Shown here piece after piece: positions 2 through 7,471 of a DNA stretch of 53,751 bases (position 1 is the first letter of the stretch; every line of letters starts with the position of its first letter). The notes under the pieces were generated by a model, which saw nothing but the letters and a program-made list of their open reading frames with translations, ran no database searches and was not told the origin of the DNA. Origin of the DNA: Promethearchaeota archaeon. Its GTDB lineage: Archaea; Asgardarchaeota; Lokiarchaeia; Sigyniarchaeales; SOKP01. The stretch covers positions 1 through 53,751 of the forward strand of contig JAEOSU010000081.1 in the NCBI GenBank assembly GCA_016840165.1. The letters are read 5' to 3'. A program made the position numbers and the translations under genes.

Positions 2-247
2 AAAGCTGCAGAAGAACTAGAAAATGAAGAGGGTGTTGACATGGAAGAAGTGGAAAAATGGAATTTGAAAGCGGAAAAATATAAAAAACTGGAAAAAGAA
101 GCAATACGGCAGTTAGACACACTTGAACTAGAAAAAGGGATTAAAACAGATGAAGAATCTCTATTTACGGAAGTAGATGGAAGTGATATTAAAAAAGAGA
201 AGAAAATAGAGGACATTTTTGACGATCCCGGGTTTTTAGAGTTCTAA
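2..247 (+). CDS. 3' end of a hypothetical charged protein (5' truncated by the window edge)
   Basis: The frame is open from position 2 (KAAEELENEEGVDMEEVEKW...) to TAA at 245-247. It ends in an acidic/aromatic tail, EDIFDDPGFLEF. Confidence 0.6.
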   Translation, partial: KAAEELENEEGVDMEEVEKWNLKAEKYKKLEKEAIRQLDTLELEKGIKTDEESLFTEVDGSDIKKEKKIEDIFDDPGFLEF

Positions 248-1896
248 AGATCAAGATTACTAATTATTCTCCTTTTAACATATATTGGAATATATTTCCA
301 AATCGGTAATTTTAGAATAAATTCAAAAAAATGATCAATTGATATTCTCTTCTTTTTTATAAAATATGCCCAGTTATTAAATGCTAAATTATTAAAATGT
401 CTCATCAAATTAACTCCAAATAAATTATAGCGTGAAGCGAAAAATCGCGCAATAAATGTTCCTAATCTTTTTCTTTCTGGAGTTGCTTCTGGATAGATAG
501 TTTCTGATAGAGCTCTATTAAAAATTTCATAGATTGAAAAAATAGGAATAAGTTTATTAATATAAGTTATAGCATTTTTGTTAAATGAGGCATTATTATC
601 AAGTTGAGTACTTACGTTATTTAATTCTTTTAATGCATTATTAATATAATTATCTCTAAATTTTAGCCACATCTTTCCCATTAAATTCCTTAAGGATTCA
701 ATATATTGGATAACTTCGGATTCCTTGAAATGAAAATTTTTCTCATTTTCCTCATACTTAATATATAAGAGGAATATGGAATCAATTTTATCTTGAGGAT
801 TATAATTATTAAAATCTAATGATTTAAATTCAAAAGTAGTTAATGAGTGATATGTATGACATTGAAGAGGTGTAATCCAAATTAAATCAATTAATTTCTC
901 CATTAATTTTATAGATTTAATGCATCTGTCTATATTGATGAAATTTTCAGACTTATCAATACTCTTTAAAGAAAAATATTTTGATTGATTAATTCTAAAT
1001 TTTACTTTTTCTAACCATCTTAATGTACTAATTATACTCTTTTTTTGTTTTTTATATTCAAGAATTTTTTTTATCAGTAATTTTTGAAATGAAAATAATT
1101 GAAGAGTATATGAATAAAAATCTATATTATAAATTTCTTTAATTTCCTGATGACAAATTAATGGAATATATTTTACTTTATCAGGTGTTTTGGTTTCTAC
1201 TTTAATAGCATGATCTCCTACAGAATAAGAAAAAGCTAAGTTTTCTAACGCTTTGTCTAATGAGGAGTAAATCCCCAGTGTTTTTGGATCTCTTGTAAAA
1301 TAACCATGTAATAAAGTGCTTATTCCTTTAAATATTCCATTTTTATATTCTGAAATTATGGCAGATTCGTATTCTCCGAGATGATGTCTATTTATGTTAA
1401 ATAGAGTGTCAAATAAAAAAATTGCTTGATTCGCCCGATGACAAACCGTATGACTCCATTTGAAAAGTGGTTCTAAAATTTTCCCATATTTTAGGATATA
1501 TCCGTAAAATTCTGGGCCAAAATAAATTGGGAATCCAAAACCTCTTGAAGTAGAGAAGGTAAATTGGAACAAATTCCTTTTTTTCTCCCCTTTTAAAAAA
1601 CCTGGAAAGAGATAATGTAAAGCTAATCGTGGATATAAAGCATCCATACCTAAATTCATCCATTTCTCAAAGAGAAGAGTACTATCCGGAAATTTGTATG
1701 AGTCTTTATAATCTGAGAAATAATATTTTAATGAGTCTCCCTTATTATTTTTATAATCAATCCGAGTTTTCTTGAAATAGAAATAGTTTATTACTCTTAT
1801 AAGGGACGTTATTTCTAATATCTGTCGTTGAAAATCATGAGAAACCTTTAGTTTGATATTCAAAGGTTTATTTTTATGTTGCAATAATGAATTCAC
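244..1896 (-). CDS. hypothetical protein, 550 aa
   Basis: Long ORF in AT-rich DNA with no recognisable motif. Confidence 0.7.
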   Translation of the reverse strand: MNSLLQHKNKPLNIKLKVSHDFQRQILEITSLIRVINYFYFKKTRIDYKNNKGDSLKYYFSDYKDSYKFPDSTLLFEKWMNLGMDALYPRLALHYLFPGFLKGEKKRNLFQFTFSTSRGFGFPIYFGPEFYGYILKYGKILEPLFKWSHTVCHRANQAIFLFDTLFNINRHHLGEYESAIISEYKNGIFKGISTLLHGYFTRDPKTLGIYSSLDKALENLAFSYSVGDHAIKVETKTPDKVKYIPLICHQEIKEIYNIDFYSYTLQLFSFQKLLIKKILEYKKQKKSIISTLRWLEKVKFRINQSKYFSLKSIDKSENFINIDRCIKSIKLMEKLIDLIWITPLQCHTYHSLTTFEFKSLDFNNYNPQDKIDSIFLLYIKYEENEKNFHFKESEVIQYIESLRNLMGKMWLKFRDNYINNALKELNNVSTQLDNNASFNKNAITYINKLIPIFSIYEIFNRALSETIYPEATPERKRLGTFIARFFASRYNLFGVNLMRHFNNLAFNNWAYFIKKKRISIDHFFEFILKLPIWKYIPIYVKRRIISNLDL

Positions 1897-2042: not shown

Positions 2043-2495
2043 TTATTCCGGAGTTTTTCGTTTATTGAATAATTGCTTCAATTCACTCATGATTGCCCCT
2101 CTTAAACTAACGGGACTGGCAGGGCGTGCAGCACCAGGTCCTCCAGGCGGTCCTCCAGGCGGTGGGGGTGGCCCTCCAGGTGGCCCACCAGGTGGTCCTC
2201 CGGGAGGTCCGGAAGAAGGTGGTGGGGCGCTAGCGGGTGTTTTAGGTGTCGCAACTATAGGTGTTGATAAACTACCCCCTTTACTTATAGTATTTAATTC
2301 ATTATTAATTGTATTAATTCTAGTCTCTATTGTTGAAATCTTTTGATTTATAACGTTTAATGATTGTTCAACCAAATCTGGAATTTTTAAAATCATAAAC
2401 ATCATTTTTTCAACAATATCTCCAAATGAATTAAGTTTCTCATCAAGAGGCTCTTTTCTTGTCTCTTGCATAAAATTAGCGAATTCTTCTGCCAT
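2043..2495 (-). CDS. coiled-coil + polyproline + C-terminal amphipathic basic helix protein (putative actin regulator, VASP/WASP-like architecture)
   Basis: Heptad coiled coil VEQSLNVINQKISTIETRINTINNELNTI, then (GPPG)n and GPPPPP, then C-terminal LRGAIMSELKQLFNKRK. The CDS is secure; the function is inferred. Confidence 0.6.
   Translation of the reverse strand: MAEEFANFMQETRKEPLDEKLNSFGDIVEKMMFMILKIPDLVEQSLNVINQKISTIETRINTINNELNTISKGGSLSTPIVATPKTPASAPPPSSGPPGGPPGGPPGGPPPPPGGPPGGPGAARPASPVSLRGAIMSELKQLFNKRKTPE
2133..2230 (-). repeat. imperfect 12-nt GC-rich coding repeats encoding GPPG units
   Basis: cctccaggcggt / cctccaggtggc / ccaccaggtggt / cctccgggaggt units on the + strand, with synonymous variation between copies. 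Confidence 0.8.
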
Positions 2496-2632: not shown

Positions 2633-3256
2633 CTAACTTGATTTAGAGACAGAATTTTTTAATTGAATCCATAATTCATTAATCTCATCCCTGACTTGGA
2701 TAAACTGATGGATCTTTTTAATTAAAACGTCTCTTGCTCTGTCAAATTCCCTCTGATAGTCATTTAACTCAGAATCTAGTATCTTTAATTTCTCTCCTTC
2801 TATTAATTTATTTTTTGCTTTCTCAACATTCAGAGCTTTTTTAATTAAAGCTCCTCTTTTCCCAGCAACCTCATCTAAAGCATTTGCTAATTCAATTTTT
2901 TTTTGAATAAAATAGTCTTTATTGACTGTAAGGTTTTTAATAGCATCAATGTATTTATTGTTTGCCTCAATATATTCATCATTTTTATGAATAATATCTT
3001 GGAATAAGTTAACCTCCTCATCTTTAATATTTGAACGTTTTTCTCTTACCAAAGTCTGCATTTGTTTTAAAACATCCCTAAAGGTTCTATTTAACATTTC
3101 TCTTTCTAAGTTAGCTTTTCTAAGTGTTTCTGCATATTTATTTTGGGCATCTATTAGGTTATTCTGAGCTTTAGCTAGCTTTTTAATGTGATTGACTAAA
3201 TCTTTTTCAGTATTTGCTAATTCAAGTTCATCCTCATGAGTTATAATTGGACACAT
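2633..3256 (-). CDS. all-alpha coiled-coil protein, possibly BAR/IMD-like
   Basis: 207 aa, continuous helical heptads, a single Pro near the N-terminus. The segment KKALNVEKAKNKL...EKLKILDSELNDYQREFDRARD recalls the SNX-BAR helix 2-3 tip. Confidence 0.5.
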   Translation of the reverse strand: MCPIITHEDELELANTEKDLVNHIKKLAKAQNNLIDAQNKYAETLRKANLEREMLNRTFRDVLKQMQTLVREKRSNIKDEEVNLFQDIIHKNDEYIEANNKYIDAIKNLTVNKDYFIQKKIELANALDEVAGKRGALIKKALNVEKAKNKLIEGEKLKILDSELNDYQREFDRARDVLIKKIHQFIQVRDEINELWIQLKNSVSKSS

Positions 3257-3344
3257 TTTCCTCAGTTCTTATATAGTTTAATAAAATCTCGATAGTATTT
3301 TAATGGAAATTCATGATTATAATGTTTTAGGTTTTTATATTATT

Positions 3345-4382
3345 TTATTTTGTAGGAAAAGAGGCCGTTATTATGTTATCCCTATAGTTTGCTTTTATCA
3401 CTTTTACTGCTAATTTTTTTCCGATTAAGTCAGGAGTGAATTTAAAAGGTTTTCTCATTAGGATCTTTATACCTAAATTTTCATTTATTTTACCAATACA
3501 CTCTCTTTCCCATCGACCTTCAGATATAATAGTAACTTCAATTATCATATTTTTTTTTAGATATGAAGTTGAGATACTTTTTCTTTTATGAATATTAAAA
3601 TCAATTGGTCCGAGTTTTAACTTTATATTATACTTCTTTTCAAGTTGAGATAGTTGATAATAAAAGTATTTCCATGATTTCGGCCTGATTTTTTTCAATT
3701 TACGCCCTGTTTTGTATATTAAATATTTCTGAATTCCTATTTGTAGTTGCTTATCGGTATAACCTTTTTTTCTTAATCCTATTACAAATTTGATAATAGC
3801 CTCAATGTCTTCATCATTTTCCGATGGAAACCAAACAGGTGCTATTAAAACATCAATGTTAGCGTCTAGGAGCTTATGGATATTGCTTAACAATACATCC
3901 ATACGATAGTTATCGCAAGCACATAAATAGCGCGCTTTATTAGCATCTAATGTATTTAGGCTGATGTTTAATCGACAATGTTTTCTGAACTTCAATTTAT
4001 AGATAATTTCATCATTTAACAATAAACCATTAGTTTGAATAGATATAGTATCAATTCCTTCAATATTAATTAGTTTTGATAATAAATCAAAAAATTCTGG
4101 ATATAATAATATTTCACCATAAGGAGAGAAATGAATCTCGATTTTATAATTACCTTTAATAGCTATTATTTCTTGAATTTGCTTCATCAAATAGGAATGA
4201 TTTATAATAAAATTGTTGGTGTAATCACCAGCCCTTACAAAGCAATATTTACATTTAAGATTGCATAGTGTTAGAGGTTTTACTTCAATTACGTTTGTTC
4301 CTCGATCTATTACACCAAAAAAGTCAATACCCATTAAAGGTATACTTGAATTATCATCGATGTAAAATAATTTATTTTTCAT
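3345..4382 (-). CDS. radical SAM protein with C-terminal TRAM-like domain (COG2100-like)
   Basis: CNLKCKYC motif, N-terminal GVIDRGTNVIEVKP, and QTNG. Confidence 0.85.
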   Translation of the reverse strand: MKNKLFYIDDNSSIPLMGIDFFGVIDRGTNVIEVKPLTLCNLKCKYCFVRAGDYTNNFIINHSYLMKQIQEIIAIKGNYKIEIHFSPYGEILLYPEFFDLLSKLINIEGIDTISIQTNGLLLNDEIIYKLKFRKHCRLNISLNTLDANKARYLCACDNYRMDVLLSNIHKLLDANIDVLIAPVWFPSENDEDIEAIIKFVIGLRKKGYTDKQLQIGIQKYLIYKTGRKLKKIRPKSWKYFYYQLSQLEKKYNIKLKLGPIDFNIHKRKSISTSYLKKNMIIEVTIISEGRWERECIGKINENLGIKILMRKPFKFTPDLIGKKLAVKVIKANYRDNIITASFPTK

Positions 4383-4414
4383 AGTTAATTTAATAATAGG
4401 TTAACTTTAAGAGA

Positions 4415-5488
4415 TTAAATTTTATATCTTAGTATTGCGACCAACGAGCCTAAATCGATAATTTGTTGTCCAGTGAGTTGCTCACTGCTAAGAATATTAA
4501 TTTTAGCATTTGATTTCTCAGCAAGGTTGAGTAAATTCTCAATTTGCATTTTTTTGTCTGTACTGACGCCTCTTATTAAGGTATCAGCGCAAAATAATTC
4601 ATTAATTGCACCTGATTCTGCCGCTTTTGTTACTTCGTTAAAACCAATAGCAATTAAATCAGGATCAATACTAAAAAGCCTAAAAATTTCTTCAATTTTA
4701 GCCATTTCTTGAATTATTTTTACCTTATTTTTCAATTTTATTAATTTATCAGATTTTAAAGTTTCAATTATGGCGCTTTCTGTGCCGGAACTAGCATGAA
4801 TATTTTCGATAGGAGGGAGTTTAATATCGCCTAGCTTATTTTGAATATCTTTTAATAGGTAATTACGAACGTTTCCTGGCCCACAAATAACAATCAAATC
4901 TATTTTTCTTGATTTAACATTCTCTTCAATAATTTTTATGATATTAGAAAAAAATTCCTCGTAGGCTTTATTACGGTAACGTGTTTCATATCTCTTTCCA
5001 GGAATCGTTTTTTTAATAGTTGCTATTCTTGTATTACTATAATTAGATACAAGAAAAATTGTTGCTAAACCAGTCTCAATCGCAATCATAAATATGAGAA
5101 AATTCTTTTCAAAAATTGACAACTCTTTAATCCTTTTTATCTCTGTATTTAACCACTTTTCCTTTTTGATCGATAAAATAGTCCCTATCTCTATATTTAA
5201 CGTATGATAACTCCCGAAGCTGACATAATCTTCAGGTCCTTCCAGTATTGTTCCTTTAATTCTTAATCGATTTGAAAACTCATGAAATGATAGGGATTCA
5301 ACATTTATTGTTAATCGCATAGGCTTTCTCTCTCCTTTGCTCCCTTCTCTCAATACAACTCTTCGGTGAGTCTGTGATGTGACTTTATCTTCTTTTCCAA
5401 TAACATTATAGAGAGCCCATAAATCATTTAAATTTTCAGTCTTTAGGACCATATCTTGTTTCTTTTTATCAAATTCAATGATTTTCAT
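4415..5488 (-). CDS. pelA: mRNA surveillance protein pelota (aDom34)
   Basis: ENLNDLWALYNVI, FHEFSNRLRIKG, GSYHTLNI, IPGKRY, GPG, and C-terminal LGSLVAILRY. Confidence 0.95.
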   Translation of the reverse strand: MKIIEFDKKKQDMVLKTENLNDLWALYNVIGKEDKVTSQTHRRVVLREGSKGERKPMRLTINVESLSFHEFSNRLRIKGTILEGPEDYVSFGSYHTLNIEIGTILSIKKEKWLNTEIKRIKELSIFEKNFLIFMIAIETGLATIFLVSNYSNTRIATIKKTIPGKRYETRYRNKAYEEFFSNIIKIIEENVKSRKIDLIVICGPGNVRNYLLKDIQNKLGDIKLPPIENIHASSGTESAIIETLKSDKLIKLKNKVKIIQEMAKIEEIFRLFSIDPDLIAIGFNEVTKAAESGAINELFCADTLIRGVSTDKKMQIENLLNLAEKSNAKINILSSEQLTGQQIIDLGSLVAILRYKI

Positions 5489-5625: not shown

Positions 5626-5778
5626 TCATTGCTCTCCTAAAGCTTCCTTGATTTTGTTTAACTCCTCCATTCGTTTCTTTTTTTCCTCTTCACGCTTTTT
5701 CATTTCTGCTTCATCTACTTTCTGGAGAGTGACACCTTTTCTAATTTCATTCTGTAATTCCTTATCGATAGGAGCCAT
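5626..5778 (-). CDS. 50-aa WH2-motif microprotein (not in the ORF track)
   Basis: ATG at 5778 to TGA at 5626 translates to MAPIDKELQNEIRKGVTLQKVDEAEMKKREEEKKKRMEELNKIKEALGEQ. AAAAGGT lies about 11 nt upstream, T-tracts lie downstream, and the ORF fills an otherwise empty gap of about 400 nt. Confidence 0.8.
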   Translation of the reverse strand: MAPIDKELQNEIRKGVTLQKVDEAEMKKREEEKKKRMEELNKIKEALGEQ

Positions 5779-6327: not shown

Positions 6328-7471
6328 AATTATATCCCTTCTCTTCCATAAAAACGTTTAAAGGCACTTTTTCGGTTGTTTGTGCATACTTCTCATCTAT
6401 AAATGGTGTTTTCTCAACAATGTATGCTTTAAGTGTATATTTTTGTAGTAAATTTGTGATTTCCTCGCGTATCATATCCTTTATTGGCAATTTGATCATA
6501 TTATTTTCAAATTTTATTCTCTTTGAGGGATTTTTAATCATTTCACTCACAGTATCATAAAATTTTCTTAATTTTTCACCATTACCTTCGATCTGGGCAA
6601 ACCATAATAAACCTTCTTCTGTAATTATTTCATATGGCTTCTTAATTGATTTTGCTCTTCGTAAATATCTTTTGGATAATTGCCAGTAGTCTTTAGCAAT
6701 AATAGTACAAAAATGGATTTTAATAGATACTTTATCAACTATTTTATTTATAAGTTTAAGAGCAAATTCTCTACTATTTTCCACGGATGCTATTGTTCCT
6801 TTCTTTAATTTAAACCCCTTTTCTTTTAAGGAATCAGTATTGGTAACACACATTTCAAATTCGTTTAGATTGATAAAATCGGCTCCTATTCGGTCGAGAT
6901 AATATATAAATTTTTCAAGGTTATTGATGTAATCTCGAGAGGGAATTACAGGAACCTCAGCTCCCACTTTGAAGCCCTTTTCTAAAGCAGATTCAATAAT
7001 AGCCCATTTATCTTTGGGGGGATTAAATCTTATCTCATCCAAACCAGCATCACTTAATTTTTGAGCGATGGATGCATCAAAATTAAGTCCATTAGTATAA
7101 AGATGGATGTGGAATTTTTTTCCTTTCTTCTTCTTAACATACTTTATGTATGAGAGAGTTTTGTCTAAATTCGGTTCAAATAATGGGTCTCCTCCAGTAA
7201 TACTCATTCCTTTCGCATGAGTAAGATTAATCTCTTCAAGCAATTGCTCCTTGTTGTTAATTTGTATTTCATTTGCATAAGTGAATTTTTTATTTTTTCT
7301 TTCCTCAGAAATAGGGCAATACCATCGGCAATGATTAGGATTTTGACATATTCCATTTAGGAATAAAACAGTTTTAGCACCTTTAAGGCAGTATTTGCAT
7401 CCCATTGGGATTCCCTTATTCTTAATATAATATGTTTCCTCTTTCGATTGGCAAATTTTGGTTTTTTTCAT
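6320..7471 (-). CDS. radical SAM protein (COG2108-like)
   Basis: GCKYCLKGAK, CQNPNHCRWYCPIS, ITGGDP, FHIHLYTNG, GLDEIRF, and NLNEFE. Confidence 0.85.
   Translation of the reverse strand: MKKTKICQSKEETYYIKNKGIPMGCKYCLKGAKTVLFLNGICQNPNHCRWYCPISEERKNKKFTYANEIQINNKEQLLEEINLTHAKGMSITGGDPLFEPNLDKTLSYIKYVKKKKGKKFHIHLYTNGLNFDASIAQKLSDAGLDEIRFNPPKDKWAIIESALEKGFKVGAEVPVIPSRDYINNLEKFIYYLDRIGADFINLNEFEMCVTNTDSLKEKGFKLKKGTIASVENSREFALKLINKIVDKVSIKIHFCTIIAKDYWQLSKRYLRRAKSIKKPYEIITEEGLLWFAQIEGNGEKLRKFYDTVSEMIKNPSKRIKFENNMIKLPIKDMIREEITNLLQKYTLKAYIVEKTPFIDEKYAQTTEKVPLNVFMEEKGYNFD

Follow-up and report, generated by a model that had tools for sequence, protein, structure and literature searches.

The gene at the locus and its family

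The open reading frame under study lies in a window of 53,751 nucleotides, i.e., the whole stretch of DNA that was analysed, and codes for a protein of 150 amino acids with a conserved N-terminal block, a coiled coil, a disordered arm and a conserved tail (Table 1). The preliminary description of this DNA had noticed a coiled coil, a Pro/Gly tract with an exact GPPPPP and a C-terminal helix, and all three parts are present. A sequence search with the 150-aa protein returned 188 homologs at E ≤ 0.01, the best at 2.5e-78, and wherever the source gives a name, these are hypothetical proteins of Asgard archaea. The tail motif LRGA[ILV][ML]xEL[KR]xLF is kept in 119 of the 121 homologs retrieved. 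Because of these homologs, the conserved tail and the spread among genomes, the open reading frame is a real gene and not a chance one; it occurs as a single copy in its own genome.

Table 1. Features of the 150-aa gene, its upstream neighbour and other loci that carry parts of the same module. Positions without a prefix are those of the window.
Feature	Position	Strand	Basis or remark
Whole gene, 150 aa	2043..2495	(-)	ATG start; stop codon 2043-2045
Conserved N-terminal block, residues 1-45	2361..2495	(-)	Alignment, phylum-wide conservation, AF2
Ile/Asn-rich heptad coiled coil, residues 46-73	2277..2360	(-)	Heptad register, PDB profile matches
Disordered length-variable arm, residues 74-130	2106..2276	(-)	pLDDT, ortholog variation
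Pro/Gly tract, residues 96-121	2133-2210	(-)	Sequence
GPPPPPG, residues 108-114	2154-2174	(-)	Exact match in sequence
Conserved tail, residues 124-147	2055..2126	(-)	Alignments, tail-only profile
E138-L139-K140 core of the end helix	2076-2084	(-)	Phylum-wide alignment
Upstream co-directional neighbour, 207 aa	2633..3256	(-)	137 nt away; predicted BAR-like fold
Arf/RagA-like GTPase, 416 aa	C1:26320-27582; L007:340-1590	(+) for C1	Head and tail profiles
Tail-bearing membrane-protein loci	L121:1612-2676 and 2811-4904; L122:2381-4393		Tail sequence

Across 301 Asgard genomes sampled throughout the phylum, a full-length profile found matches in 154 genomes, and a tail-only profile built from distant family members found matches in 202. 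The family is present with an identical layout in the Loki, Thor-type, Odin and Baldr lineages, among others. Members from distant lineages, including named ones of Odinarchaeia and Baldrarchaeia, preserve the order of head, coil, arm and tail. Three larger lineages gave no match (0/28, 0/11 and 0/11 genomes, respectively). When 1.84 billion representatives were searched exhaustively with a profile, 544 proteins were recovered at E ≤ 0.001, and among the best 150 of these 544 the majority are 70 to 220 aa long; longer proteins that share the tail were recovered by the per-genome and the exhaustive profile searches. A word-index search with residues 111-150, a query very short for the size of the database, gave no match at E ≤ 10. 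Structural look-alikes in the ESM Atlas are unnamed Asgard clusters only. The family is Asgard-specific, and a literature search found no paper describing it. In one genome from another family of the class, two diverged copies of the gene stand in tandem (L035:5998-6387 and 6402-6830).

Architecture of the 150-aa protein

An alignment of 29 sequences served as input for an AF2 model of the 150-aa protein, in which a short helix (residues 2-12) and a long helix (residues 17-73) are predicted with pLDDT above 90, followed by a disordered stretch (residues 74-130) with pLDDT below 50 and an end helix (residues 131-147) with pLDDT about 78. In the alignment of 29 members, conservation is seen in the first 45 residues and in the tail; the arm between them varies in length and sequence. 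The N-terminal block runs from helix 2-12 through the conserved P16 into the long helix, whose first half it includes; conserved positions there are F/L24-G25-D26, I27, V28 and L36. Taken together, model and sequence bear out the layout first proposed by comparison with VASP, i.e., an oligomerising coil, a proline-rich arm and an end helix.

Residues 46-70 place Ile, Leu or Val at the heptad a and d positions. With few exceptions, the family profile matched trimeric coiled coils in the PDB (E 2.5e-5 to 0.01), among them Lpp, viral fusion proteins and trimeric autotransporter adhesin/GCN4 fusions. Since these matches are trimeric and Ile occupies both a and d positions, the coiled coil is probably a parallel trimer.

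The same helix had been likened to the small coiled-coil subunits of the WASH and WAVE complexes, CCDC53 (WASHC3) and BRK1/HSPC300, of which the family would then be a distant relative. CCDC53 and BRK1 are likewise small proteins whose N-terminal helix forms a trimeric coiled coil, and CCDC53 has a low-complexity middle part. Sub-threshold matches to Pfam CCDC53 (PF10152) were obtained for 4 of the 29 members (best E 0.018), and an Arf-fused relative reached 21 bits; in genome searches, the PF10152 match in the own genome falls on an open reading frame of family size, as does the single listed PF10152 match in the genomes of seven relatives (about 155-190 aa). However, the Pfam cut-off of 24.6 bits was never reached, the 150-aa protein itself scoring 13.6 bits, and PF10152 stayed below cut-off in all 41 genomes searched. 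At E ≤ 1, it also matched 6 of 14 unrelated control genomes, and matches among close relatives are not independent. Generic coiled-coil families scored higher (Baculo_PEP_C, for example, in 21 of the 29 members), and BRK1 is not in the best 60 of the 123 PDB matches of the profile. The resemblance of the coil to CCDC53 and BRK1 is therefore below the Pfam cut-off and no better than that to generic coiled coils, the matches found being to generic trimeric coiled coils only, and common descent with these subunits appears most improbable.

The Pro/Gly tract of the arm holds three GPPG units in addition to GPPPPPG. Its coding DNA is a GC island (68-69% GC vs. 16-30% in the flanks) that contains 12-nt tandem units at 2137-2201. 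A run of at least five prolines occurs in 99 of the 121 retrieved homologs, which are close relatives. Throughout the family, such runs are found in the Loki order only; in other classes the longest run is one to four prolines, and the arms of Thor-type, Odin-type and other members are rich in Ala, Ser, Gly or Gln. Hence the GPPPPP singled out in the preliminary description is exact, yet it is confined to the Loki order, and the recruitment of profilin through this motif cannot be the function of the family as a whole.

The end helix is the most conserved part of the protein. The tail consists of RPASPVS followed by the end helix, residues 131-147 (LRGAIMSELKQLFNKRK), a defined peptide of 17 residues, three of them nearly invariant. 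All of 31 sequences aligned from across the phylum have L139 and K140, and 30 of them have E138; R132, L142, F143 and P128 are strongly conserved as well, and positions 129, 133, 141, 144 and 148 vary. The objection that the helix might not be conserved among orthologs thus fails. On a helical wheel, the conserved residues gather on a single face, where E138 and K140 border a hydrophobic arc, and the variable positions 133, 141, 144 and 148 are on the opposite one; the pattern points to a helix docking onto a specific surface.

Reuse of the module in GTPases and other proteins

In the own genome, the best non-self match of the head profile and that of the tail profile are one and the same protein, an Arf/RagA-like GTPase of 416 aa whose C-terminal 90 residues comprise a head, a coil, a linker and the tail ELKQLFDKKRK. 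This GTPase also bears an extra N-terminal domain. The whole module follows the GTPase domain in relatives of 394-464 aa from other genomes, one of which is named ADP-ribosylation factor-like protein by NCBI; the Arf-like protein P0187 combines the tail SLRGAIMGELKELFAKKK with a Pro-rich arm. The head motif, the coiled coil and the end helix occur in these GTPase tails in the order known from the 150-aa protein, which differs from its Arf-like relatives in that it stands alone, lacking both their GTPase domain and their N-terminal domain of about 110-130 aa. C-terminal module tails are not described in the literature on Arf/RagA-like GTPases that was searched.

The two ends of the module also occur separately. 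A membrane protein and, in a sister genome, a Rab-like GTPase have the tail without the head. The head without the tail occurs in three fusions, namely to a Ras-family GTPase, to a wHTH protein and to a protein of 491 aa. To judge from these arrangements, the unit of head, arm and end helix is portable.

Some details of the tail-only proteins are worth recording. The Rab/Ras-like GTPase of the sister genome G104 (L039:5392-6738, about 450 aa) contains the exact peptide PVSLRGAIMSELKQ in mid-protein, followed by a long helical C-terminal region. The membrane protein, of 671-705 aa with a C-terminal transmembrane segment, carries PPPPG and then TLRGGMT[EQ]ELK[TK]LF; at the L121 locus, in one genus, its gene begins 135 bp after a gene for a two-repeat gelsolin with a zinc ribbon.

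Gene neighbourhood

The 207-aa gene lies directly upstream of the family gene in 78 of 80 Loki loci. AF2 predicts three long helices for its product (pLDDT 90), and the top Foldseek matches of the model are BAR domains, with a TM score of 0.66-0.69 to arfaptin-2, E-values of 7e-3 or weaker, and further matches to SNX1, Lsp1/Pil1 and I-BAR proteins. In three Loki genomes examined with full flanks, the gene order runs Pelota, radical SAM, 207-aa gene, family gene, a gene for about 570 aa and Elf1. A homolog of the BAR-like gene exists, in a non-adjacent position, in both closed genomes of a sister family, taken to be those of L. ossiferum and MK-D1; none was detected in three more distant genomes. 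Adjacency to the BAR-like gene is limited to one Loki genome family and, because the whole region is syntenic in that family, may reflect inheritance and not function. The 207-aa neighbour is taken as context for the family gene and at most as a candidate partner. Outside Loki, the neighbours include phosphoglucomutase, PIG-L and glycosyltransferase genes; Ras-family GTPases lie at a distance of one to three genes, and no actin-related gene occurs in the neighbourhoods examined there.

Two other genes of the window may be noted here. The downstream gene (244-1896, minus strand) codes for 550 aa without a Pfam family and adjoins the family gene in at least 50 of the 80 Loki loci, as counted in 3-kb flanks. 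Farther away, an open reading frame of 50 aa (5626-5778, minus strand) carries LQNEIRKGVTLQKV, which resembles a WH2 motif; it gave no match in a Pfam search and, in three further Loki genomes, keeps its place between GNAT and Pelota at 68-78% identity, one of its relatives having LAPP in place of LQKV.

A lipid or a protein as the target of the end helix

An amphipathic helix at the extreme C-terminus, behind a flexible linker, calls to mind the membrane-targeting helices of MinD and FtsA. The 150-aa protein could accordingly act as a peripheral tether on membranes, and its helix could likewise anchor the Arf-like GTPases that bear it. Its net charge of +3 to +5 and the hydrophobic arc formed by I135, L139, L142, F143 and M136 fit such a role, as do the BAR-like neighbour and the location of the helix at the C-terminal position of small GTPases, which is the site of the membrane anchors in eukaryotic Ras and Rab proteins. 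Nevertheless, the hydrophobic moment is modest (0.25-0.43) and reached by 19% of shuffles in the case of the 150-aa protein, and the mean hydrophobicity is low (0.1-0.3). Lipid-binding helices usually conserve only their physical chemistry, so that a near-invariant E138 and an L139 and a K140 kept exactly across classes are unusual for them. The motif is moreover found inside two longer proteins, the Rab-like one and one that possesses a transmembrane segment already. Next to a hydrophobic face, the conserved E138 is, we infer, more in keeping with a contact to protein than with one to anionic lipid, and a membrane anchor is, on this evidence, unlikely.

Among known docking helices, the MIM1-type helix of ESCRT-III was considered and rejected on the basis of its charge pattern: the MIM1 consensus has Arg at the position matching E138 and Lys or Arg at the position matching F143.

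Comparison with actin-assembly factors

Asgard archaea possess actin, profilins and gelsolins, and it has been stated in published work that no machinery for filament nucleation or elongation is known in them. The 150-aa protein could belong to that machinery as a minimal Ena/VASP-like actin factor, in which the end helix would bind Lokiactin in the manner of the F-actin-binding (FAB) helix of VASP or of a WH2 helix, the GPPPPP arm would recruit profilin-actin, and the multivalency of the coil would bundle filaments or speed up their elongation. Ena/VASP proteins consist, in order, of an EVH1 domain, a Pro-rich region, GAB, FAB and a tetramerising coiled coil. With these, the 150-aa protein has in common an oligomeric state (probable here), a proline region of the GPPPPP type and a short basic helix, and its parts equal those of the EVH2 half of VASP in a different order. 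On the other hand, it is without an EVH1 domain and without a GAB/WH2 motif, its coil is N-terminal and trimeric-looking whereas that of Ena/VASP is C-terminal and tetrameric, and polyproline is not conserved family-wide.

The likeness of the end helix to FAB was evaluated with the VASP peptide of the preliminary description, as printed in PMC10340426. The peptide aligns without gaps in the register first proposed, and the Thor-type tails (GGLMGELKSLLAARRKK) look closer still. Against the phylum-wide tail profile, however, it scores a weak 4.3 bits, a value equalled by 2.2% of its shuffles (0.9% with a Loki-only profile), and the invariant ELK of the tail corresponds to EMN in VASP.

Domain searches, for their part, returned nothing from these families. 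Pfam WH1 gave no match at E ≤ 1 for the 150-aa protein or any of the 29 members, VASP_tetra none for the same proteins, and WH2 none for the 150-aa protein, the 29 members or 21 isolated tails (E ≤ 10). In the PDB, the tail profile matched no WH2-actin chain, its sole matches being a designed coil and twinfilin-2 at E 0.5. Membership in the Ena/VASP, WASP or WASH families, to whose architecture the preliminary description had likened the protein, is thus not borne out. The resemblance to VASP is best described as one of layout and composition, and homology is not demonstrable from the sequences compared.

WH2 proteins, such as the V region of WASP/WAVE and thymosin beta-4, also combine a short amphipathic helix with a Pro-rich stretch before it and basic residues after it, and the same holds for the helix and the Pro-rich stretch that accompany the WH2-like LKKT motif of 2DGel gelsolins. 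The WH2-like motifs known from Asgard archaea (LRRV, LKHV, LVDV and LKDV) are located between gelsolin domains. Unlike WH2 proteins, the 150-aa protein has no LKK[TV]-type motif behind the end helix, and a GAB-type L[KR][KR][TV] after the helix is absent from its sequence. It also differs from WASP, WAVE and WASH factors, which bear a WH2, a C helix and an acidic tail with Trp; it ends in KRKTPE, acidic tail and Trp being absent, and the presumed L. ossiferum ortholog has six Asp at its C-terminus and likewise no Trp. Domain X of the Thor 1DGelX protein, a predicted coiled coil according to published work, was considered as a relative but found no support, most Thor-type genomes having a single tail match, located in a small open reading frame.

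The genomic evidence on an actin-related role is divided. A Pfam Actin search of the own genome found four actin-family genes, two of them Lokiactin-like. The Pro-rich stretch directly precedes the helix in the free-standing family, in some Arf-like tails and in the 671-705-aa membrane protein, and the gene of the latter adjoins a gelsolin gene in one genome. Still, the distribution of the family does not track that of gelsolin: the three lineages that lack the family (f7, f16 and f29) have gelsolin repeats in 26/28, 11/11 and 9/11 genomes, and in one lineage that bears it (f5) gelsolin repeats were found in none of four genomes. The four gelsolin-domain proteins of the own genome are without the module, and the best 150 profile matches include no fusion of it to gelsolin or profilin. 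Lokiactin itself is present in all 46 genomes sampled, so that its presence does not discriminate. As to the Loki arms with five or more prolines, Loki profilins were reported not to bind polyproline.

Published proteomics of a cultivated relative adds to this picture. A genome taken to be that of L. ossiferum B35 holds a 152-aa ortholog adjoining an Elf1-like gene, whose product (L120:7238-7858, computed mass 24.01 kDa) corresponds by mass to GNAMCCOK_02218, a tag that is also near the number expected from two gelsolin anchors; the ortholog would consequently be GNAMCCOK_02219. In a Lokiactin co-immunoprecipitation (bioRxiv 10.1101/2025.11.30.690169), the rows listed give GNAMCCOK_02218 a log2 ratio of 1.36 (adjusted p 0.034). 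The presumed ortholog GNAMCCOK_02219 was quantified in all 16 published proteomes at a mean log2 of 18.47, but it is absent among the co-immunoprecipitation rows listed, from the top ratio down to -1.06 (bioRxiv 10.1101/2025.11.30.690169). This absence is mild evidence against a stable association with Lokiactin; it weighs little because the mapping is indirect, the rows extend to -1.06 only and binding of the motif type may not survive co-immunoprecipitation. The 'Arf GTPase' among the co-precipitated proteins was considered as the tail-bearing one and rejected: by its mass of 38.10 kDa and its position, it corresponds to the 329-aa L123 protein, which has no such tail. The C-terminal extension of that protein (L123:1183-2169, minus strand) differs from the module. 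Taken as a whole, these observations make a minimal Ena/VASP-like actin factor distinctly unlikely.

Proposed function and implications

The 150-aa protein may represent the free-standing form of an Asgard-specific module in which a flexible arm joins an oligomerising head to a docking helix. We tentatively propose, with a confidence just short of an even chance, that it is an adaptor, probably trimeric, whose arms present the docking helix in the remodelling of membrane or cortex by small GTPases and BAR-type proteins. The N-terminal helix and the Ile/Asn coiled coil would assemble the head, probably as a parallel trimer, from which each chain would extend a disordered Pro/Gly-rich arm of about 55 residues. 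At the end of the arm, the short basic helix would dock the face formed by I135, L139, L142 and F143, flanked by E138 and K140, into the groove of a conserved partner, and the trimer could thereby cluster or tether several copies of the partner protein. In this proposal, the oligomeric state, the docking to a protein and not to lipid, and the pathway are the parts reached by inference. A setting in GTPase- and BAR-type remodelling is considered the most likely because the module forms the tail of Arf/RagA-like GTPases and the gene follows a BAR-like gene, but fusions and proximity to small GTPases carry limited weight, since these GTPases are so abundant in Asgard genomes.

A bolder proposal, which we regard as very unlikely, would make the family the missing actin assembly or bundling factor of Asgard archaea, a trimeric analogue of Ena/VASP whose helix binds Lokiactin filaments, whose GPPPPP arms in Loki feed profilin-actin, and whose fusion to Arf-like proteins amounts to GTPase control near BAR-like proteins. 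According to published work, no link of small GTPases to cytoskeleton or membrane is known in Asgard archaea; if this proposal were true, a connection from GTPase to actin to membrane would predate eukaryotes.

For the adaptor proposed above, the interest lies in what its end helix binds. This partner is probably a hub in the organisation of Asgard cells, because the family is Asgard-specific and present in most of the lineages searched, its presumed ortholog is expressed in a cultivated species, and the module is reused on Arf-like GTPases.
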